64,000 nt of DNA from Solirubrobacterales bacterium (GCA_051954855.1 JBQCHH010000008.1:18978-82977), one strand, 5' to 3'; shown: positions 3,105-26,373, counted from the first letter of the stretch. Notes: a model not told the origin generated them from the sequence alone. Made by a program: numbers and translations.

Positions 3105-4460
3105 ATGAGCGAAGTGCCCGAGCCGACTCACAGAAGGCGCTCCCACGCCGGCACCCGCGACCTCGAACGCTACGCGGGCCTGTTCGCCGAGCGGACGGGG
3201 GTGATGCGCTCCTCGGCGATGCGTGACCTGATGGCGATCACCGCCCGCCCGGAAGTGATCTCGCTGGCCGGCGGCCTGCCCGACACCTCGACCTTCCCGC
3301 CGCAGAGCTTCGCCGCGCAGATGACGCGGATCGCCCAGGAGTCGGCGGCGGAGGCGCTCCAGTACGGGCCGACGGAGGGCTTCGAGGAGACCAAGGACTG
3401 CATCCTCGAGGTGATGGGCGCCGAGGGGATGCTGCCCGACCCCGACGACGTGATCGTCACCACCGGCGGCCAGCAGGCGATCGACCTGATCTGCAAGGCG
3501 GTGATCGACCCCGGCGACGTGATCGTCTGCGAGGCGCCGACCTACCCGGGCGCGCTCTCGGTCTTCTCCAGCTACCAGGCCGACGTGGTCCAGGTCGAGT
3601 GCGACGAGGACGGGATGCGGGTCGAGGCGCTGGAGCGGTTGCTCGCCGATCTCCGCGCCGAGGGGCGGCGGCTGAAGTTCATCTACTCGGTGCCGAGCTT
3701 CCAGAACCCGGCTGGGGTGACGATGTCGCTTGAGCGCCGCCACCAGCTGGTCGGGCTGACGCGGGCCGAGGAGCTGCTGGTGGTCGAGGACAGCCCCTAC
3801 GGGCTGCTGCGCTACGGCGGCGAGCCGATGCCGCCGCTCTACCAGCTCGACGGCGGCGACTTCGTCATCTACGTGGGCACCTTCTCGAAGATCCTCTCCC
3901 CCGGCATCCGCCTCGGCTGGATGGTGGCGCCGCCGCCGATCATGGAGAAGGTCGTGCTCGGCAAGCAGGCCGCCGACCTCTGCACCTCGACCCTGACCCA
4001 GTACTTCGTCCGCGAGTACTTCGCCGAACGGCGCTGGCAGCGCTACATCGACGACCTGGTCGAGATCTACCGCGGCCGCCGCGACACGATGCTGGAGGCG
4101 CTGCGCACGTACTTCCCGGCGGAGGCGGCCTGGACCGAGCCCGAGGGCGGGCTCTTCATCTGGGCGACCCTGCCCGGCTACATCGACACCAGCGACCTGC
4201 TGGCGAAGGCGCTGCGCGCCGACGTCGCCTTCGTGCCGGGGCAGGCGGCCTACCTCGACGGGCGCGGCGGCCAGTCGATGCGGCTGAACTTCTCCGGCGT
4301 CGGCGACGAGGAGATCCGCGAGGGGGTGCGGCGGATCGGCAAGACGATCGCCGAGCAGGTCGAGCTCTACGGAGCGCTGACCGGTGAGCAGCGGGCGCCG
4401 GCGCCAGCTGAGGAGCCGGAGCCCAACGTGCTCCCCTTCCGCAAGGCGGAGGAAGCGTGA
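3105..4460 (+). CDS. PLP-dependent aminotransferase, class I/II (2-aminoadipate/MocR-like catalytic domain, no HTH)
   Basis: ATG at 3105, in frame with ORF 2670..4460. Motifs ISLAGGLPD, PTEG, VTTGGQQA, PTYPG, YSVPSFQNPAG, GTFSKILSPGIRLGW (PLP lysine), MRLNF. Confidence 0.8.
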   Translation: MSEVPEPTHRRRSHAGTRDLERYAGLFAERTGVMRSSAMRDLMAITARPEVISLAGGLPDTSTFPPQSFAAQMTRIAQESAAEALQYGPTEGFEETKDCILEVMGAEGMLPDPDDVIVTTGGQQAIDLICKAVIDPGDVIVCEAPTYPGALSVFSSYQADVVQVECDEDGMRVEALERLLADLRAEGRRLKFIYSVPSFQNPAGVTMSLERRHQLVGLTRAEELLVVEDSPYGLLRYGGEPMPPLYQLDGGDFVIYVGTFSKILSPGIRLGWMVAPPPIMEKVVLGKQAADLCTSTLTQYFVREYFAERRWQRYIDDLVEIYRGRRDTMLEALRTYFPAEAAWTEPEGGLFIWATLPGYIDTSDLLAKALRADVAFVPGQAAYLDGRGGQSMRLNFSGVGDEEIREGVRRIGKTIAEQVELYGALTGEQRAPAPAEEPEPNVLPFRKAEEA

Positions 4461-5389
4461 AGGTCGCGGTGCTGAAGGGCGGCCGCTCGCTGGAGCGCGG
4501 GGTCTCGCTGCGCTCGGGGGCGCGGGTCGAGGACGCGCTGGGGCGGCTCGGCCACGAGGTGCTGCCGATCGACGTCGGCCGCGACCTGGTCAAGCGCCTG
4601 ATCGCCGAGCGGCCCGACGTCGCCTTCGTCGCCATGCACGGGGTCGGCGGCGAGGACGGCACCGTGCAGGAGCTGCTGGAGATCCTCGGCATCCCCTTCA
4701 CCGGGCCCGGCGCCGCCGCCTGCGCGCGCTGCATGGACAAGGTCCAGGCCAAGTACTCGATCGAGGAGGCGGGGCTGCCGACGCCGGCCTGGTTCGCCTT
4801 CAACCAGACCGCCTTCCGCGAGCTCGGCGCCGCCGACGCGCTGGGGCGGCTGGAGGAGACGCTCGGCTTCCCGCTCGTGGTCAAGCCCAGCCGCGGCGGC
4901 TCCTCGCTCGGAGTCAAGTTCGCGGCCTCGCCGGGCGAGGTGCCGCAGGCGCTGGTGTCCGCCTTCAGCTATGACGAGCGGGTGCTCCTGGAGCGCTACG
5001 TCGAGGGGCGGGAGCTGGCGGTGAGCGTGCTCGGCGACGAGCCCCTGCCGGTGGTCGAGGCGATCCTGCTGGAGGGCGACCGCTACGACTTCGAGGCGCG
5101 CTACGAGATCGGCCGCACCCGCTTCGCCTGCCCGGCCGAGCTGAGCCCCGACGAGGAGCGGGCCGTGACCGAGGCCGCCCTCGGCGCGTACCGCGCCCTC
5201 GGCTGCACCGGCTTCGCCCGCATCGACCTGATCCTCGCCGCCGACGGCCCCTGGCTGCTGGAGGCCAACGCGATCCCCGGCCTCACCGACACCAGCCTCC
5301 TCCCCCAGGCCGCCGAGGCCACGGGGCTCTCTTTTGAGCAGCTGGTCGAGCGGATTCTCGATCTCGCTCTCAGGCCTGCAGCCGCCTAG
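4457..5389 (+). CDS. ddl: D-alanine--D-alanine ligase (short DdlB-type)
   Basis: MKVAVLKGGRSLERGVSLRSG..., HGVGGEDGTVQELLE, VVKPSRGGSSLGV, YDFEARY, EANAIPGLT. Collinear with E. coli DdlB as I recall it. GTGA overlap with the aminotransferase stop. Confidence 0.9.
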   Translation: MKVAVLKGGRSLERGVSLRSGARVEDALGRLGHEVLPIDVGRDLVKRLIAERPDVAFVAMHGVGGEDGTVQELLEILGIPFTGPGAAACARCMDKVQAKYSIEEAGLPTPAWFAFNQTAFRELGAADALGRLEETLGFPLVVKPSRGGSSLGVKFAASPGEVPQALVSAFSYDERVLLERYVEGRELAVSVLGDEPLPVVEAILLEGDRYDFEARYEIGRTRFACPAELSPDEERAVTEAALGAYRALGCTGFARIDLILAADGPWLLEANAIPGLTDTSLLPQAAEATGLSFEQLVERILDLALRPAAA

Positions 5390-5868
5390 CTTTCCCCCTG
5401 GGCGAAATCATCAGGCGTCACCTCGTCGAGGAACTCTTTGAAGCGGTCGACGACTTCCTCGGTGTCCTCGACCTCGTGCTCGAACTCGATCGCCGACTCC
5501 TCGATGACCTCCTCGGCGGCGAAGATCGGCGCCGCCACGCGGACCGCCAGCGCCAGCGCGTCGGAGGGGCGCGAGTCGATCTCGATCTCCGAGCCGTTGA
5601 CCGAGACGGTGATCGAGGCGTAGAAGGTGTTGTCGCGCAGCTCGGTGACGGCGACCCGCTCGCACTTGGCGTCGAGGTTCTCGAGCATGTCGGAGAGCAG
5701 GTCGTGGGTCATCGGCCGCGGCGTCGAAGCGCCCTGCAGCTTCATCAAAATCGCCGCCGCCTCCGGGTGGCCGATCCAGATCGGCAGGAAGCGGTTCCCG
5801 TCCACGGTCTTCAGCAACACGATCGGCTGCTTGCCGACCATGTCGAAACTGACCCCGTAGATCTGCAT
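5386..5868 (-). CDS. Bifunctional nuclease family protein (DUF151/BFN)
   Basis: Start taken at MQIYGVSFD. Motifs PIVLLK, FLPIWIGHPEAAAI, RPMTHDL, IDSRPSDALALAVR, plus an acidic C-terminal tail. Confidence 0.75.
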   Translation of the reverse strand: MQIYGVSFDMVGKQPIVLLKTVDGNRFLPIWIGHPEAAAILMKLQGASTPRPMTHDLLSDMLENLDAKCERVAVTELRDNTFYASITVSVNGSEIEIDSRPSDALALAVRVAAPIFAAEEVIEESAIEFEHEVEDTEEVVDRFKEFLDEVTPDDFAQGES

Positions 5869-5962
5869 CTGCTGCAAGAGAAGCTCCCGACCGTAGGTTG
5901 ACCGCCGATTATAGGTCGGGCACATACCCGGTCCAGAAGGGCGCGTACCGCGCGAAAGCCAG

Positions 5963-6036
<74 letters not shown>

Positions 6037-15965: not shown

Positions 15966-18431
<2,466 letters not shown>

Positions 18432-18467: not shown

Positions 18468-20996
18468 ATGGCGCTGGAAGCACTTACCGGCCGTATCGAA
18501 GAGCGCGAGCTCGAGAAGGAGATGCGCTCGTCGTACCTCGATTACGCGATGAGCGTGATCGTCGGGCGGGCGCTGCCGGACGTGCGGGACGGGTTGAAGC
18601 CGGTGCATCGGCGGGTGTTGTTCGCGATGCACGACATCGGCCTGCAACCGACCCGGTCCTACCGCAAGTGCGCCTACATCGTCGGTGAGGTGATGGGCAA
18701 GTACCACCCGCACGGCGACTCGGCGATCTACGACACGTTGGTACGTATGGCGCAGGACTTCTCCCTGCGGTACGTCCTCGTCGACGGGCAGGGCAACTTC
18801 GGCTCGATCGACGACGACCCGGCGGCCGCGATGAGGTACACCGAGGCGCGGCTCGGGCGGCTCGCGACCGAGATGCTGCGGGACATCGACGCGGACACCG
18901 TCGACTTCGGCCCCAACTACGACGAGAAGGCGCAGGAACCGCTGGTGCTGCCGGCGCGCTTCCCGAACCTGCTGGTCAATGGCACCTCCGGGATCGCCGT
19001 GGGGATGGCGACCAACATCCCGCCGCACAACCTGCGCGAGGTCGCCGCCGCGGTCACCGCCTACATCGACGATCCCGGGATCGATCTCGAGGGCCTGATG
19101 GAGCACGTCAAAGGGCCGGACTTCCCCGGCGGCGGGATCATGAGCCGCGAGGGGATCCGCGACGCCTACGCCTCCGGCCGCGGCAGCATCCGGGTGCGGG
19201 CGCGCGCCCACGTCGAGCCGCTCAAAGGCGGCAAGGAGGCGATCGTCGTCACCGAGCTTCCCTTCATGGTCAAAAAGGGCGGCGAAGGCGGCCTGATCAC
19301 CAAGATCGCCGATCTCGTCCGCGACAAGAAGCTGGAGGGCATCTCCGACCTGCGCGACGAGTCCGACCGCTCCGGCATGCGGCTGGTGATCGAGCTGAAG
19401 CGCGGCGGCCCGCCGGCGAAAGTCGTTCTCAACAACCTCTACAAGAAAACCGCCATGCAGACGACCTTCGGCGCCAACATGGTGGCGCTGGTCGACGGGG
19501 TGCCGCGGACGCTGAGCCTGCGCGAGCTCGTCCACTACTACGTGGAGCACCAGCGCGAGGTCATCACCCGCCGCACCCAGTACGAACTGCGGCGGGCCGA
19601 GGCGCGGGCGCACATCCTCGAGGGGCTGCTGGTCGCGCTCGACAACCTCGACGCGGTGATCAAACTGATCCGCGGCTCGAAAGACCCGGACGCCGCCCGC
19701 GACGGGCTGATCTCGCAGTTCGAGCTCTCGCGCGAGCAGGCGCAGGCGATCCTCGACATGCGCCTGCAGCGGCTGACCGCGCTGGAGGCCGACAAGGTCC
19801 GCGCGGAGCACGCCGATTTGGTCGAGCGGATCGGCGAACTGCGGGCGATCCTCGGCGACGAAGCCAAAGTGATGGGCTTGGTCAAGGACGAGCTGGCCGA
19901 AGTCGTCGAGTCCTACGGCGACGAGCGCCGCACCGAGCTCGCCCACTTCGAGGGCGACGTCGGGATCGAGGACATGATCGCCGACCAGCAGATGGTGATC
20001 TCGCTGACCGCCTCCGGCTACGTCAAGCGGCTGCCGCTGGCGACCTACCGCCAACAACGCCGGGGCGGGGTCGGGGTGATGGGGATGAACCTCAAAGAGA
20101 ACGACTACATCGCCCATCTTCACATCTGCTCGACCCACGACTTCCTGCTCTTCTTCACCAACCGCGGCAAGGTCTACCGGCTCAAGGTGTACGAGCTGCC
20201 GGAGGGCTCGCGCACCTCGAAAGGCAGCTCGCTCAACAACCTGCTGCCGCTCCGCGAGGGCGAGCGGGTGATGGCGGTGATCCCGACCCGCGACTTCAAA
20301 GAGAACAAGTACCTGGCCTTCGCCACCGCCCAGGGGCTGATCAAGAAAACGAAATTCCTCGCCTACAACACGCCGATCCGCGCCGACGGGATCATCGCGA
20401 TCAAGGTCCGCGACGGCGACGAGTTGGTGCAAGTCCGCCTCACCTCGGGCGAAGACGACATCCTGATGGTCTCCCACTCCGGCCACGCCTCCCGCTTCTC
20501 GGAGAAGCTCGTGCGCGAGATGGGCCGCGACACCAGCGGCGTCAAAGGGATGAACGTCGCCGGCAAGGACAACCGGGTGCTGGCGATGGACGTCGCCCGC
20601 AACGACACCGAACTCTTCGTCGTCACCGAGAACGGCTACGGAAAGCGCACGCCGGTCGCCGAGTATCCGGTCAAGGGCCGCGGCACGAAAGGCGTGCTGA
20701 CCGCGAAGCTGACCGAGAAGAAGGGCGGCCTCGCCGGCGCCCTGATCGTCGCCGAGCACCAGGACCTCCTCTTCATCTCGCAGAACGGGATGGTCCAGCG
20801 CACCTCCGTTGGCGGCATCTCGCAGATGGGCCGTGCCACCCAGGGTGTCAAGGTGATGAACATCAAGGACGACGACCGCGTCAGCGCCGTCGCCCTCGTG
20901 GTCGAGTCCGAAGAATCGGACTCTCCTACCGAGATCGAGCCCCAGGCCGAGGAACTGCCTGGCGCCGACGGGGCGTCCGCGGACGGAGCGGGCTAG
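18468..20996 (+). CDS. gyrA: DNA gyrase subunit A
   Basis: [43 protein letters not shown] (QRDR), YTEARL (catalytic Tyr), C-terminal beta-pinwheel repeats and an acidic tail. Confidence 0.95.
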
Positions 20997-22012
20997 CCCC
21001 CAACACCAACAGCGCCTGAGAGGGGGCGCTGCGCTTCGGCTTCGAAAGCCTCTCCCGTCAGCGGGAACGAGGGGGCTCCGGGGAAGTTGACGGTGAGGTC
21101 GCCGGTCCAGGTCTTGGTCCCGTCGGGACTCGCCGTGTAGACGCCGACGCCGTGGAACGGAGGTGGCGGCGCAGCTTCGGCGTGGGTCAGAGCGTCATTG
21201 ACGACGAGGCTGCCGGAGTGCTGAGCGGTGACGGCGAGGCTGCCTGAATGCTGAATGGCGACGGCGAGGCGGATGATCGCGACCGAGCCGAGGGCCTGTT
21301 CGGACCTGGCGAAGAAAATCGGATGGAACAGAAGAGTCGTCGCGGAAAAATCAGCGGATTCGGTGCCGCGCCGCCACCCCGCCGTCAGCTCTTCACGCGG
21401 CACGAACGAGGAGAAGGGGCCCGACGAGGCAGTTGCCGATCGGCGCACGAAGAAGTGCGCGTGGGCGCAGACAGCGGTCTCCCGGCGAATGCTGCCGCCG
21501 GCGCGGTGAACCCGGACCGAGACGTAGTCGCCTTCGCCGGAGAAGCGGAAGCCGCCGACCCAGACACCGCGCCGTTTGGGGTGCCGGATGCTCCCGTGAC
21601 AGTGATGACGAGGCGGCAGCGGCGCCAGGTGAGGAGAGGGCCGGAAGCGCATGTCCAGCTTCCCGAAGCGCCCGAAATCGGCCGCCAACCTCCGGGAGGT
21701 CGCGACGCCGCGACCCAAGTAAGCGGTGACGGTGCCTTTCCGGCGGCCGATGATGACGACGATCGCACCCCCGATCTCGGTGGCCTCGACCCTGTAGCCG
21801 CTCGCGGTCTTGATCCGGAGGGTGGGCCGGAAATCGAAGCCTTGCTTCCTCGTGGAAGTCTCCTTTCGCACCAGCGGGACGATCTGCCCCCAGGCGGTTG
21901 CGGCGGGCCCCAGTCGCTCGAGCGGGACTTGCGCCTGAGCCACGGACGCGCTCGAGGCGACCAAGACGAGCAGCGCCGGCAAAAGCAAGAGGACCGGAAG
22001 CCCGCGCCTCAT
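20993..22012 (-). CDS. Secreted protein of unknown function, partner Q1 of the S1 protease; paralogue of 23013..23945
   Basis: Signal peptide [28 protein letters not shown]. Blocks shared with Q2: YL.(R/K)GVAT..RL.A.FG.FGK..MRF, YVSV.VHRA.G, PFHG.G.Y.A.PDG..TWTGDL.VNFPG.P..PLTG. ATGA overlap with the upstream protease gene. Confidence 0.7.
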
Positions 22013-22986
22013 CTCAGCCTCGCCACCCGTCCGTAGAGCCGCGCCACTTCCTGGCCGAAGTAGGACCCGTAGTCGGTCGCGGGGTCACGGGGATAGGCGT
22101 AGTCGGTAACGCTGTTCAGCGTGTCGCCTCCGATCGTCCAACCGCCGCCGGAGGCGCCACCGGTCACGTTGCAGGACACGGCCAGGTTCAGCGGGCCTTT
22201 CATCAGATAGCTCAGCGCGTCATGGGCGAGAAACGGCGTCTGCGAGCAAAGTCGCTGGGTTTCGCCGTCGAAGGGCGGTCCGGCTGGATAACCGTGAACG
22301 TCGAACACCTGGCGGGCTGGCTGGTTCCAGGCGATCCCGTCCCCGCCAACCGCTGCCTCCAGCGACTGCCCGCGTTCGTTGCGCCCGACCACAGCGGCGC
22401 CGACGTCGGCGTCCTCGCTCTCCTCCGACATCCACAGCTTCGTCGCGTCGAGATGGGTGGCGGGGAAAACCCCGAACGGCCGTTGTCCGAAGCGGAAGCC
22501 CGGAACGAAGACCCAGAGCCTGTCGTACCAGTGGTGGTTGGAGAAGCGGTTGAAGACGCAGTGTCCGGCGGTGAAGACGACACTGCGGTTGGGAGCGTTC
22601 ACCGAAGTGCCCGAGCAGCGCGCGGGGATTCCGTCTACGAGAAAGAAGACCACGCCGTTGCGGCGAAGCTCTTCGCTCGTCGGGTACGCTACTTCGTCAA
22701 AAGTCACGCCAGAAGCAGTGGCAGCCGTCGCCATGACCGCCCCTGGCCGTCCGTCCGGTTCGGCCCCCCGGCTGAGATGGAGGCTGGGGGGCGAGCCTTC
22801 CATCGGTTTCGCCGCGCGCATCCGCGCGGGGGTCCAGTAGCGCAGAGCCTGCTGGGTCAAGGAGGGGTCGATCCGGACGCTTGCCCGCGCCGACGATCCC
22901 CCGCCGAAGAGGGCGACGAGCAGCGCACCGAAAACGAGCACACCGACTTTCCAGGGGACGCCGGGAGCCCCGCCTGGCCGCATCAT
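22009..22986 (-). CDS. Secreted trypsin-like serine peptidase (family S1), copy P1
   Basis: Signal/TM segment, then VVFTAGHC (His), DVGAAVV (Asp) and TGGASGGGW (Ser nucleophile). Paralogue of 23942..24955. Confidence 0.75.
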   Translation of the reverse strand: MMRPGGAPGVPWKVGVLVFGALLVALFGGGSSARASVRIDPSLTQQALRYWTPARMRAAKPMEGSPPSLHLSRGAEPDGRPGAVMATAATASGVTFDEVAYPTSEELRRNGVVFFLVDGIPARCSGTSVNAPNRSVVFTAGHCVFNRFSNHHWYDRLWVFVPGFRFGQRPFGVFPATHLDATKLWMSEESEDADVGAAVVGRNERGQSLEAAVGGDGIAWNQPARQVFDVHGYPAGPPFDGETQRLCSQTPFLAHDALSYLMKGPLNLAVSCNVTGGASGGGWTIGGDTLNSVTDYAYPRDPATDYGSYFGQEVARLYGRVARLR

Positions 22987-23012
22987 GGACCAGAGTCTAT
23001 CCGCGTACTCGC

Positions 23013-23945
23013 CTAGAACGGCGCTTCGAGGAAGGTCTTGAAGTCCGGGCCCGTGAGGGGGTAGCGGGGGTCGCCGGGGAAGTTGACGCTGAGGTCGCCG
23101 GTCCAGGTGGTGCTGCCGTCGGGGGCGGCGCGGTAATGGCCGGCGCCGTGGAACGGAGCCGGAGGTGAGAGATCGGCGGCGGTGGCGGCTTCGTTGACGT
23201 GGAACGCTTTATGAGGGTCGGCGAAGGCGGCCCTGATGATCGCCAGCTTGCCTCGGCTTTCTTCGTGCGTCGCCAAAAGCTCTGATATCGGGCCGAATTC
23301 GAGCGCGAGGAGGCGGGTGAAGTCGACCCCGTGGCGCGACTCGGCCAGGAAGGCGGAGGGAGTCACGAAGAAAATGTTGCCGCCGCCGTTGGAATGGCGA
23401 TGGGGATGAGGGTGGGGACGCCGCGGACACCGTCCCCCCGGTTCCAGAATCCCTCCGGCAGCTCGATGGACGTGAACCGAGACGTAGCCGTTTTCTCCAC
23501 GGAAGCGGAGGCTGCCGACGAAGATGCCCTTGCGTCGAACGAGCCGGAAGGTGCCTAGGCAAACAGCGCGCTTGCTCGTTTCGTGGAAGCGCATCAGGAC
23601 CTTGCCGAAGTTGCCGAAGGTTGCCTGCAGCCGCTCCGGGGTCGCTACCCCCTTGGCGAGGTAGATGGTCTCGGCAACAGCCTCCCGATGCTGGTTGGAG
23701 ACCACGAGGGTCACCGCGCTGCCGAAGGTCGAAACCCCTACTTTGTAGCCGCCAGACGAAGGTTCCACCTGGAAGCCGGAGCGAAAAACGTGGAGAGGGG
23801 GAACGGGCGCTCCGACCTTGGTCATCAGCTTGCGCGGCGGCAGCGGCGGCAAGAGCCGTTCTTCTTCTGCGGCGTGAGCGGCGGGTGCCGCCAGCAGCGC
23901 CACTGCCAGCGCGAAAGGAATGAGGATGGTGAGCCGGAGACTCAT
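23013..23945 (-). CDS. Secreted protein of unknown function, partner Q2; paralogue of 20993..22012
   Basis: Signal peptide MSLRLTILIPFALAVALLAAPAAHA. Same conserved blocks as Q1. Contains a His-rich patch, CPRRPHPHPHRHSNGGG. ATGA overlap with the upstream protease P2. Confidence 0.7.
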   Translation of the reverse strand: MSLRLTILIPFALAVALLAAPAAHAAEEERLLPPLPPRKLMTKVGAPVPPLHVFRSGFQVEPSSGGYKVGVSTFGSAVTLVVSNQHREAVAETIYLAKGVATPERLQATFGNFGKVLMRFHETSKRAVCLGTFRLVRRKGIFVGSLRFRGENGYVSVHVHRAAGGILEPGGRCPRRPHPHPHRHSNGGGNIFFVTPSAFLAESRHGVDFTRLLALEFGPISELLATHEESRGKLAIIRAAFADPHKAFHVNEAATAADLSPPAPFHGAGHYRAAPDGSTTWTGDLSVNFPGDPRYPLTGPDFKTFLEAPF

Positions 23946-24955
23946 CTCACCTTTGCCGCTCGTCCGTAGAGTCGTGCGACTTCCTTACCGAAGTAAGCGC
24001 CGAAGTCGGGGCTGGTGTCGTCGAAATAGCCGTAGTTGGTGACGCTGTTGAGCGTGTCTCTGTCGATCGTCCAGCCGCCCCCTGAGGCGCCGCCGGTGAC
24101 TCCGCAGGCGACCGCGAGGTTGAGCGGCCCGGGGAAGAGGAAGGAGTCAGGGTCGTGGCCGATGAACGGTTCGTCGCGGCAGATCCGCTGGGTTTCCCCG
24201 TCGAACGGTTCTTCCGCCGGGTAGCCGTGGACGTCGAAGGTCTGGCGCGGCTTCAGGTTCCAGGCGATCCCGGCCCCGCCGACTGCTTCGCCGAGCGTTT
24301 CGCCGCGCTGGTTGGGGCCGACCACGGCAGCGCCGACGTCGTAGTTCTCGCTGCCGCTGCGGCGCCACTGCTTGGTCGTGTCGATCCAGCGCGCCGGGAA
24401 GACGCCGAAGGGCCGCTGCCCGTAGCGGTAGGCGGGGACGAAGACCCAGCGCTCCTTGAACCAGCGCCCGCGCGGACCGCCACTGTTGATGCAGTGGGCG
24501 GCGGTGAAGACCACGCTCTGGTTTCCGGAATGGACTGCCGTCCCCGAGCAGCGGGCGTAGCCGAAAATCCCGAAGGAGATGAAGATCGCGCCGTTGATCC
24601 GGTATTCGGGCGCCGTGGGGTCGGCCACCTGTTCGAAGCCGGATGCTTCGATCGTGAGCCGCGGCAGCTCGCCCGAGACGCGGTGCGGGCGACCGCGCAC
24701 GCCGGCCCGGGAGGCGGCAGCAGCGTCGAGGCGCGAGCGCTTGATCTCGAGCGGCTTCGCTTCCCGCATCCGCTGCGGCGTCCAGAAGGCGCCGGCTTCA
24801 CGGGCGGACAGCTGCGGCACCCAGACGCCGGCACGAGCGGGGGCGGCAGCGACGGCAACGATCGTCATGAGGAGAAGGAGCCCCGCCAGCATCGCGCCCG
24901 CGAGCGCCCGTTTCGGTCCCCCGGCCCGCGCAATCATCGGCGCAAGTCTACTCAC
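23942..24955 (-). CDS. Secreted trypsin-like serine peptidase (family S1), copy P2
   Basis: VVFTAAHC, DVGAAVVG, FDVHGYPAEEPFDGETQRIC, VTGGASGGGWTI. N-terminal signal/anchor. Confidence 0.75.
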   Translation of the reverse strand: MSRLAPMIARAGGPKRALAGAMLAGLLLLMTIVAVAAAPARAGVWVPQLSAREAGAFWTPQRMREAKPLEIKRSRLDAAAASRAGVRGRPHRVSGELPRLTIEASGFEQVADPTAPEYRINGAIFISFGIFGYARCSGTAVHSGNQSVVFTAAHCINSGGPRGRWFKERWVFVPAYRYGQRPFGVFPARWIDTTKQWRRSGSENYDVGAAVVGPNQRGETLGEAVGGAGIAWNLKPRQTFDVHGYPAEEPFDGETQRICRDEPFIGHDPDSFLFPGPLNLAVACGVTGGASGGGWTIDRDTLNSVTNYGYFDDTSPDFGAYFGKEVARLYGRAAKVR

Positions 24956-25013: not shown

Positions 25014-25523
25014 CTACGCGGCCTGCGGTAAGTACTGCTGCCAGGCGGGCGGGATCTTCGGGCTGGCGACCTGGATGAAGACCGTCGGCGGCGGCGCCTT
25101 CGGGGTCTTCGCCGGGTGCATGTGGATCTCGCGCGGGAGGCGGTTGCCCTTGCGGCGGTTGCAGGACGCGCAGGCGGCGACGATGTTCTCCCAAACCGAT
25201 TGACCGCCGCGGGAGCGGGGGATGACGTGGTCGACGGTGAGCCCGGATTTGGTGCAGCCGCAGTACTGGCAGGTCCAGGAATCGCGGGCGAGGACGGCGC
25301 GACGGGTGATCTTGCGGCGGTGCGCCTCGCGTGGGATCCGCACGTAGTTGACGAGCCGGATCACGTCGGGCCGCTCCATCGTCATCCGCTCGGAGTGCAG
25401 CGCGGCGCCGTCCCGCTGCTCGAGTAGTTCTGCTTTTTCCTTCAGGAGCAGGACAGCGGCTCGTCTCAACGTGCAGACGTTGATCGGCTCATACGTCGCG
25501 TTGAGTACCAGCACCCTGGCCAT
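25014..25523 (-). CDS. HNH endonuclease
   Basis: WTCQYCGCTKSGLTVDHVIPRSRGGQSVWENIVAACASCNRRKGN: Cys4 plus the H-N-H motif. Confidence 0.85.
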   Translation of the reverse strand: MARVLVLNATYEPINVCTLRRAAVLLLKEKAELLEQRDGAALHSERMTMERPDVIRLVNYVRIPREAHRRKITRRAVLARDSWTCQYCGCTKSGLTVDHVIPRSRGGQSVWENIVAACASCNRRKGNRLPREIHMHPAKTPKAPPPTVFIQVASPKIPPAWQQYLPQAA

Positions 25524-26373
25524 GGTTGACGGAAATTGTAGGGCCCACCGCGTAGGAACCCAGGATTCGCACCGATTCGGCCTTCGTCCGCAGCTGCGCG
25601 ATCGCCTCGGAGACGGCCGGGTCGGTGTCCCGGCCCTCGAGGTCGCAGAAGAACATGTAGCGCCCCAGGCCCTGGCGCAGCGGCCGCGACTCGATCCGGG
25701 TCAGGTTGATTCCGCGGCTGGAGAACTCGCTCAGCGCTTCGACCAGGGCGCCGGGGTGGTCGGCCCCCAGCTCGGAAAATACGAGCGAGGTTTTCCACGC
25801 CCCCTCACCTGCCGACTCGGTCCCGGCGGGGGCGATCCAGACGAAGCGGGTGACGTTGTCGGCGGAGTCCTCGACCCCTTCCAGAAGCAGCTCGCATCCA
25901 TACAGCGCCGCCGCCGCCCGCGCCCCCAGCGCCGCCCACGGCCGCGAGGACTCGCTCACCATGCGCACCGCCGCCGCGGTGCTGCTGACGCTGCGCCGTT
26001 CCACCTCGGGGAAGGTCTCGCGCAGGAAGCGGGCGCACTGGGCGAGCGGCTGGGGGTGCGAGAGCACCGCCTCGACGTCCTCGACCCGAACGCCGTCGCG
26101 GGCGATCAGGTGCACCCGAACTCGGTAGTCGTGCTCGCCGACGATCGTCACCGCCCTCGCCTCGAAGGCAAGGGTGTCGAGGGTGGGGCGGATCGAGCCC
26201 TCGACCGAGTTCTCGATCGGCACCAGCGCCCGCTCCGCCTCGCCGCGCTCGACCGCGAGGATCGCGTCATGAATCGTCGCCGTCCGCAGCGCCTCGTAGC
26301 CGCCGTCAGGCAGCGCCTCCCCGAGCGCGTCCTCGGTGAAGGTTCCAGCGGGTCCTAAATAGGCGATGCGCAT
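25489..26373 (-). CDS. pheA: Prephenate dehydratase (PDT + ACT domains)
   Basis: MRIAYLGPAGTFTEDA, VPIENSVEGSI, TRFVW, GINLTRIESRP, FFCDLEG. The 3' end overlaps the HNH gene start by 35 nt. Confidence 0.9.
   Translation of the reverse strand: MRIAYLGPAGTFTEDALGEALPDGGYEALRTATIHDAILAVERGEAERALVPIENSVEGSIRPTLDTLAFEARAVTIVGEHDYRVRVHLIARDGVRVEDVEAVLSHPQPLAQCARFLRETFPEVERRSVSSTAAAVRMVSESSRPWAALGARAAAALYGCELLLEGVEDSADNVTRFVWIAPAGTESAGEGAWKTSLVFSELGADHPGALVEALSEFSSRGINLTRIESRPLRQGLGRYMFFCDLEGRDTDPAVSEAIAQLRTKAESVRILGSYAVGPTISVNHGQGAGTQRDV

Follow-up and report, generated by a model that had tools for sequence, protein, structure and literature searches.

A secreted S1 protease and a coupled, basic all-β partner of an uncharacterised family form a conserved gene pair in Solirubrobacterales

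Introduction

The closest described relatives of the proteases considered here are AL20 from Nesterenkonia (3CP7), Anisep (3WY8) and PrtA, secreted S1 enzymes of the actinobacterial type that have the same fold and the catalytic-triad motifs TAxHC, D and GGxSGG, without an Asp before the Ser. PrtA from Xylella fastidiosa is an active secreted protease that is inactive as the S280A variant and has been modelled on 3CP7 (PMC4974619), and AL20 prefers hydrophobic residues at the P1 position of its substrates (PMC6906142, citing Bakhtiar 2005). Here we analyse a 64,000-nucleotide stretch of DNA from Solirubrobacterales bacterium (GCA_051954855.1 JBQCHH010000008.1:18978-82977; hereafter the window, with positions counted from its first letter), in which two proteases of this kind, P2 and P1, are each followed by an overlapping gene for a secreted protein of an uncharacterised family, Q2 and Q1. 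The P proteins share the fold and triad motifs of AL20, Anisep and PrtA at about 30% identity and form a clade of their own, marked by a pro-region motif, FWTPxRMRxAxP. A partner resembling Q has not been reported for AL20, Anisep or PrtA, as judged by the descriptions of these enzymes and not by their genomic contexts.

The next-best structural matches to P are the staphylococcal S1B proteases (V8/SspA, Esp, Spl and the exfoliative toxins; E-values (E) from 1e-10 to 1e-7), which are secreted as precursors and require exact N-terminal processing. They differ from P in being Firmicute enzymes with different operon partners and with only 12-21% identity to it, and Glu specificity enters for P only through a database name of its homologues.

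Proteases encoded next to a dedicated regulator are known from other families. In the staphopain-staphostatin systems (scpAB, sspBC) and in the serralysin system formed by AprA and AprI (Inh), the protease gene is followed by a co-transcribed gene for a small β-barrel protein that inhibits the enzyme specifically and 1:1; AprI/Inh carries a signal peptide, and its N-terminal segment fills the active-site cleft. These operons are the closest analogue of the logic proposed below for P and Q, although not of their ancestry: staphopains and serralysins are cysteine or metalloproteases, unlike the serine protease P, and Q is larger and very basic and resembles neither I57, I38 nor any other Pfam inhibitor family in sequence or fold. 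The pro region of α-lytic protease and the lipase-specific foldase Lif represent a second arrangement, in which a stoichiometric factor is needed once per molecule of a secreted hydrolase for folding and then serves as a temporary inhibitor; the C-terminal tail of the α-lytic pro region lies in the active site. Unlike the hydrolases of these systems, P keeps an N-terminal pro-region of its own, whereas Q is encoded by a separate, downstream gene and displays no detected homology to the pro region or to Lif. In the literature searched, we found no description of the Q family, of its strict coupling to P, of the conserved leaderless layout or of several cognate lineages.

Organisation of the two gene pairs

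The cassette consists of four minus-strand genes arranged as two P-Q pairs, with the following features:

23942-24955, minus strand: P2, prepro S1 serine protease; longest open reading frame (ORF) of 337 residues, likely true start ATG 24937, giving 331 residues
23013-23945, minus strand: Q2, secreted, strongly basic, all-β protein of an uncharacterised family, 310 residues
22009-22986, minus strand: P1, paralogous prepro S1 serine protease, 325 residues
20993-22012, minus strand: Q1, divergent paralogue of Q2, 339 residues
23942-23945, minus strand: ATGA stop/start overlap of P2 and Q2, read from the sequence
22009-22012, minus strand: ATGA stop/start overlap of P1 and Q1, read from the sequence
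24945-24950, minus strand: TAGACT, a hexamer resembling a -10 element (TANNNT), exactly 7 nucleotides (nt) before the P2 ATG at 24937
22994-22999, minus strand: TAGACT, a second -10-like hexamer, 7 nt before the P1 ATG at 22986 and within the 26-nt spacer between Q2 and P1

An earlier note on this DNA had described four genes at these coordinates, and the list of ORFs agrees with it exactly. For P2 the agreement extends to the longest frame (23942-24955), but not to the start codon, which more likely lies at ATG 24937. The ATGA overlap in each pair and the 26 nt that separate the Q2 stop from the P1 start are read in the sequence as the note had reported them, and all of the P and Q motifs that it quoted were located, including PHPHPHRH at Q2 residues 177-184 (23394-23417). 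Its account of both sets of paralogues also stands: P1 and P2 are 53% identical (E 2e-107) and both have the H, D and S of the S1 triad, and Q1 and Q2 are 39% identical (E 6e-50) and begin with signal peptides. Its placement of the cassette directly downstream of gyrA has to be corrected, because gyrA runs on the plus strand, convergent with Q1, and the two genes share 4 nt at their 3' ends; the cassette merely adjoins gyrA physically and is not transcriptionally downstream of it.

The GC content at third codon positions is 0.78-0.86 in the reading frames of P1, P2, Q1 and Q2, and the ratio of non-synonymous to synonymous substitution rates (dN/dS) of P2 and Q2 against their orthologues is 0.17-0.24, as expected for purifying selection. 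On these values we take all four to be real genes under selection. Judged by eye, the four N-termini are Sec-like, in that a basic n-region leads into a hydrophobic core, which is followed by an AxA-type site; the predicted cleavage sites across the four proteins are ARA-G, AHA-A, ARA-S and AQA-Q.

Conservation of the P-Q linkage

The evidence that P and Q belong together comes from two scans. The first, seeded with Q and restricted to one genome per species, yielded 78 loci, each of which belongs to Solirubrobacterales or to unclassified Actinomycetota. In 56/56 intact pairs P directly precedes Q, and the two overlap in frame through ATGA or GTGA. The second, seeded with P, covered metagenomes and returned 80 loci at 55% identity to P2 or higher; Q follows with a 4-nt overlap in every one of the 73 that have enough downstream sequence (73/73). 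The 4-nt overlap is kept in 129/129 informative pairs when genomes and metagenomes are combined, and the P-Q adjacency, which the earlier note had named as a point to check across genomes, is conserved. The linkage is also retained in at least four paralogous clades. It is asymmetric: a P of this clade without Q was never found, whereas Q homologues of about 30% identity do occur without P, in varied contexts.

The usual setting of the pair is constant. Around 38 genome loci and most metagenome loci carry a single P-Q pair in the order pheA-HNH-P-Q><gyrA-gyrB, where the opposed arrowheads mark convergent genes. This block adjoins dnaA-dnaN-recF, which makes it a core locus near the replication origin. 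The pair was also considered as a defence system and rejected as such, since it has no PADLOC match and is a core syntenic gene pair.

P and Q have changed together as well as stayed together. For the 56 unique loci of the orthologous clade, the pairwise distances of P and Q are correlated with r = 0.87, compared with r = 0.69 for P and pheA and r = 0.69 for Q and pheA. The correlation of P with Q persists once pheA is taken into account (partial r = 0.75, partial Mantel p = 0.001), and P and Q each evolve at two to three times the rate of pheA. Because the module is intact in every related soil actinobacterial genome examined, P and Q almost certainly work together, very probably as a functional cognate pair. 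The earlier note had proposed cognate partners inherited as a unit, a view that the overlap counts from both scans and the partial correlation strongly support.

One locus departs from the intact layout. At L034:3301-5998, which was considered as a double-P locus and rejected, a single P gene is split by a transposase-like ORF of 476 residues on the opposite strand (4107-5537); the Q gene downstream is intact and keeps its GTGA overlap. The split indicates that loss of P by insertion is possible in at least one lineage.

The protease P

By sequence comparison and predicted structure, P1 and P2 are S1 serine proteases (clan PA, chymotrypsin fold) of the AL20/Anisep, V8-like group (COG3591). Against the sequences of the Protein Data Bank (PDB), P2 matches 3wy8 (E 1.1e-31) and 3cp7, which is AL20 (E 3e-26), over residues 121-334, that is, the whole catalytic domain, at 29-30% identity and with the TAxHC, D and GGxSGG motifs aligned. 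The triad codons of P2 are H154 (24494-24496), D206 (24338-24340) and S291 (24083-24085), and those of P1 are H142 (22561-22563), D194 (22405-22407) and S279 (22150-22152). In P2 numbering, the triad H154/D206/S291 and two pairs of Cys residues are invariant in 22 and in 33 homologues.

The AlphaFold2 (AF2) model of P2 has a predicted local distance difference test score (pLDDT) of 71.5 and a predicted template-modelling score (pTM) of 0.74, with low confidence at the active-site loop 289-294. Compared with the PDB by Foldseek, the model gives 355 matches at E <= 1e-3, and the best 50 of the 355 are all S1 proteases. 3cp7 and 3wy8 come first (E 1e-13, target template-modelling score (TM) 0.71-0.73), and the next ranks are taken by Esp, V8, exfoliative toxins and Spl proteases; 3wy8 is annotated in the Foldseek output as Anisep from Arthrobacter nicotinovorans. 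The homologues of P are named 'trypsin-like serine peptidase' or, in entries from the Joint Genome Institute (JGI), 'V8-like Glu-specific endopeptidase'. P1 and P2 have no Pfam match and no relevant NCBIfam match at E <= 1, and none is precomputed for the homologues, a gap that is due to model coverage and is not evidence against the S1 fold.

The precursor of P2 is built from a signal peptide that ends at about ARA42-G43, a pro-region, and a catalytic domain that starts at about residue 110. The pro-region motif reads FWTPQRMREAKP in P2 (W58); the FWTPxRMRxAxP pattern, invariant in P, is modelled at a pLDDT of 87-96 and is followed by a disordered linker. The protease itself is thus ordinary, and its kind is already known.

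The partner Q

Q is a non-enzymatic, two-lobed, all-β protein with a large positive charge, and it belongs to a family without known relatives. The mature protein has approximately 285 residues, a median isoelectric point of 11.2 and a median net charge of +21 (58 pairs). In Q2, signal peptide cleavage is placed by eye at AHA25-A26; a Pro-rich N-terminal tail (26-53) follows, C129 and C173 are invariant, and the C-terminus reads ...FLEAPF. The AF2 model of Q2 (pLDDT 80, pTM 0.72) is all-β. Its two lobes span residues 55-172 and 197-307, and the loop that connects them (180-192), located after the second invariant Cys, is disordered (pLDDT <50); residues 1-50 are modelled with low confidence. 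The His/Arg loop PHPHPHRH lies between the second invariant Cys and the second lobe.

Q1, the divergent paralogue of Q2, keeps all 39 family-invariant residues. It contains a 30-nt tandem repeat (2.4 copies, 85% match, 21199-21270) that encodes QHSGSL(A/V)V and sits in a loop that carries no insertion in the rest of the family, and it ends in an atypical extension of eight residues, SGAVGVGG, past the usual C-terminus.

The family is large and consists of unnamed proteins. A word-indexed search returned at least 441 homologues, all annotated as 'hypothetical', and those with a named source are nearly all from metagenome-assembled Solirubrobacterales. A Q profile run against 1.84 billion cluster representatives gave 1,887 matches at E <= 1e-3 and 1,358 at E <= 1e-10; the resulting figure of about 1,900 Q-family clusters is counted at 50% identity.

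None of the comparisons connected Q to a described family, in keeping with the earlier note, which could not assign it either. Q1 and Q2 have no match in Pfam, NCBIfam or PADLOC; no Pfam or NCBIfam model match is shared by 30 aligned members of the family or by ten longer, distant members; and the Q profile found nothing among PDB sequences. The best Foldseek match of the Q2 model in the PDB is a 25-phosphosteroid lyase, which is not convincing (E 1e-4, TM 0.21-0.25, root-mean-square deviation ~20 Å), and the BFVD viral library gave nothing at E <= 1e-3. On the basis of the model, the fold of Q may be new. A likeness to phosphosteroid lyases was set aside as a weak lead only, with a TM of about 0.2 and no mention of a lyase fold in the papers found. 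An outer-membrane β-barrel or a lipocalin was likewise rejected: the matches are weak (TM <0.26), the strands of Q are rich in charged residues, and the host lineage, which we take to be Gram-positive, speaks against an outer-membrane β-barrel.

Several traits distinguish Q proteins that are linked to a P gene from solo homologues. P-linked Q carries a Pro-rich segment of approximately 20-40 residues between signal peptide and core, as opposed to ~8-15 in solo Q. In the gyrA-linked clade this tail reads LLPPLPPxxLxTQVGAPVPP; it is conserved within clades, yet modelled at a pLDDT below 50. The C-terminus of P-linked Q is fixed, with 101/107 unique proteins ending exactly 11 residues past the PLTG motif and 94/107 ending in Phe or Trp, whereas the C-termini of solo Q are longer and variable. 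The net charge of the core ranges from +6 to +30 in P-linked Q and from -1 to +19 in solo Q. Members of the gyrA-linked clade also have an Arg/His-rich loop after the second Cys, and the sequence and length of this basic loop vary even inside P-linked clades.

The solo homologues have neighbours and architectures of their own. Those at L067:5662-8115 and L073:5458-8028 are followed, 4-7 nt downstream, by a gene for a secreted protein of 460-473 residues with the motif WR..TFPELG(S/T)TGLFL.VDCPSE, and because of this neighbour Q-like proteins may pair with other secreted partners. Other solo homologues form tandem genes (L055:4716-6759 and L063:5866-10250), and a protein of 688 residues, P0210, contains two Q-like stretches and is an apparent Q-Q fusion.

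Expression signals

The leaders of P1 and P2 can be aligned as GAGTACG..TAGACT, a 7-nt spacer and ATGAT. The same layout recurs among relatives: TANNNT, mostly as GTAGACT, precedes the in-frame start of P by exactly 7 nt in 61/137 P genes and by 5-9 nt in 81/137, even though the flanks have diverged. Given the base composition, TANNNT would turn up at any one position with a probability of ~0.004. P2 and P1 both have the layout of a leaderless actinobacterial transcript, for which TANNNT is expected 6-8 nt before the start, with no Shine-Dalgarno (SD) leader. With the -10 element only 7 nt ahead of the ATG, the P-Q transcripts are probably leaderless or near-leaderless. For P2, the alignment with the P1 start and the conserved upstream element both favour ATG 24937, which is also where the gene caller places the start (331 residues). 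Since TAGACT precedes each P gene, and that of P1 lies inside the 26-nt spacer, each pair is likely to have its own promoter.

An SD-like sequence, AAGGTGAG, occurs just upstream of the Q2 start, inside P2, and in Q genes the start codon is preceded at a distance of a few bases by GGTG or GAGG, an SD-like sequence within the end of P. A consensus scan for terminators found none at the P/Q junctions or in the Q2-P1 spacer; six weak matches in the region all fall within coding sequence and are near the count expected by chance. A scan for the sigma-70 consensus detected no promoter.

Proposed mechanism and alternatives

These features can be arranged into a working model. P would be transcribed from the TAGACT element as a leaderless message, and re-initiation at the overlapping ATGA would start the translation of Q, so that the two proteins would be made in roughly equimolar amounts. 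Both would be exported through their Sec-type signal peptides. Outside the cell, Q would bind P 1:1 as a latency or escort factor that either holds the protease inactive or guides it, and the positive charge of Q may retain the complex at the anionic cell wall up to the point at which Q is set free or broken down. The candidate contact elements of Q are the Pro-rich N-terminal tail, the C-terminal Phe/Trp and the extra basic charge, because they are found only in P-linked Q; the fixed aromatic C-terminus recalls the active-site tail of the α-lytic pro region. That Q is a direct 1:1 binding partner of P, with an inhibitory (latency) or escort role, is a reading that we favour tentatively. Its fullest version seems somewhat doubtful to us: Q would then found a family of cognate S1 serine protease regulators that is new and might also have a new fold, coupled 1:1 on a leaderless message, with the tail and/or the aromatic C-terminus in the protease and the charge pinning the latent complex to the wall. 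Such a family would count as a new inhibitor or escort family of the MEROPS type, specific to a soil actinobacterial order dominated by uncultured members and diversified there into several cognate pairs.

Several observations weigh against direct binding. In the AF2 model, the final strand of Q (303-307) belongs to the folded core, so that the aromatic C-terminus may be structural and not a protease-binding tail, in contrast with the tail of the α-lytic pro region. The existence of solo homologues implies that the Q fold has a role independent of P, and the conserved pro-region of P itself means that a separate foldase is not obviously needed. Q matches no inhibitor, propeptide or chaperone family by sequence or fold, the families compared including SSI (I16), Inh/AprI (I38), staphostatin (I57), ecotin (I11) and I9. 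A natural P-Q fusion was not found in the protein collection with a concatenated P2+Q2 query, which returned proteins of P length and two artefacts (a frameshift or a misplaced start). Finally, the correlated distances of P and Q can reflect lineage-specific rates shared by secreted proteins.

Q could instead be a dedicated substrate, a pro-protein matured by P through removal of the tail or through a cut in the His/Arg-rich loop between the lobes. Processed Q, and not P, would then carry the function of the module, for example in the cell envelope or in the binding of polyanions. Linkage and co-divergence are expected here just as they are for a binding partner, and P-linked Q does offer two conserved, disordered and accessible segments, the tail and the basic loop after C173 (180-192), which are absent or different in solo Q; the solo homologues would be versions that have no need of processing. 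What makes this reading unlikely in our view is that an enzyme and its substrate do not need equimolar synthesis, yet the overlap is universal among the informative pairs, and that the basic loop is not constant in sequence or length within P-linked clades. No cleavage motif is conserved across clades, and the nearest characterised protease prefers a hydrophobic P1 residue, not Arg or His (PMC6906142).

A looser association is also conceivable, in which P and Q are co-expressed and act on a common external target without binding each other, Q as a cationic binder of the cell wall, extracellular DNA or other polyanions, and P as a general protease that works outside the cell to scavenge nutrients or turn over the envelope. 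The extreme positive charge of Q would suit such a role, Q-like proteins do occur without P, at L067 and L073 beside a different secreted protein, and AL20 and PrtA, which are relatives of P, are general secreted proteases (PMC6906142, PMC4974619). This arrangement leaves the strict asymmetry unexplained, however, with P never found without Q across 129 pairs and at least four old paralogous lineages; nor does it account for the several traits specific to P-linked Q, or for a partial correlation between P and Q well above that of either protein with pheA. We consider it quite unlikely.

The module bears on several wider questions. Solirubrobacterales are abundant in soil and little studied, and the order now has a defined, conserved two-gene module near the replication origin. 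The Q family, with its many clusters, gains a concrete and testable context in being produced together with P. If Q is a specific protease regulator, it would provide a new inhibitor or escort family and fold, together with natural cognate pairs for studies of specificity; if it is a substrate, the module would represent a new secreted maturation pathway. The combination of TAGACT-N7-ATG with the ATGA overlap would be a clear-cut case of leaderless transcription joined to coupled translation, and TAGACT-N7-ATG could guide annotation in this lineage, including the correction of start codons.

Origin of the second pair

Of the two pairs, P2-Q2 is the ancestral one, in syntenic position, and P1-Q1 is an old paralogous pair placed in the spacer between Q and gyrA. 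Neighbour-joining (NJ) trees built on the catalytic domain exclude P1 from the gyrA-linked clade in 50/50 bootstrap replicates and group it with P genes that are located elsewhere in their genomes (L035, L048, L038). Q1 has a long branch, and only 4/50 bootstraps nest it in the gyrA-linked clade. The closest relatives, with Q2 identities of 84-91%, carry a single P-Q pair. The tree placement of P1 and Q1 and the single-pair relatives together indicate that the P-Q unit diversified into several lineages long ago.

The earlier note had seen P1-Q1 as a tandem duplicate formed in place, and at first sight the locus invites this view, with two adjacent cassettes in like order and orientation, the leader GAGTACG..TAGACT-N7-ATGAT common to both, and DNA blocks that are 71-75% identical at constant spacing. 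A recent duplicate of P2-Q2 that has since diverged would nevertheless have to fall to 53% identity in P and 39% in Q while P2 and Q2 stay 81-92% identical to their orthologues. It would also have to be reconciled with the position of P1 outside the gyrA-linked clade in every bootstrap tree, with the single pair in close relatives, and with the finding that none of ~135 loci carrying a P gene shows a second tandem case. We therefore judge a recent duplication in place to be highly improbable, and this part of the note is not upheld.

The spacer between Q and gyrA appears to be an insertion hot spot and, in the window, the site of P1-Q1. In many relatives it holds 0.4-2 kb of unrelated inserted ORFs. 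Examples are L010:6809-8529, with ORFs of 246 and 327 residues, and L024:6835-8759, with a membrane-like ORF of 478 residues; inserts in the same spacer occur in L011, L014, L017, L023, L037, L084, L093, L097, L110, L114, L122, L132 and L161.

Neighbouring genes and other observations

The module is flanked by the following genes:

18468-20996, plus strand: gyrA, convergent neighbour outside the module, given for context only; its stop and that of Q1 overlap by 4 nt
15990-18431, plus strand: gyrB
25014-25523, minus strand: gene for an HNH-domain protein of 169 residues, overlapping the 3' end of pheA by 35 nt
25489-26373: pheA

The HNH protein, with a mean distance of 0.05 and identities of 90-98%, is more conserved than pheA, P, Q and gyrA, which is unusual for a small HNH protein, even one encoded at a core locus. 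The match to gyrA is split by ~1.1-1.2 kb in L002, L012, L013, L022, L026 and L058, which has the look of an intein-type insertion; the gyrA of the window is free of it. A tRNA-Ile gene (anticodon GAT) at 5962-6036 on the minus strand is the sole Rfam or ARAGORN match in the 64-kb window.

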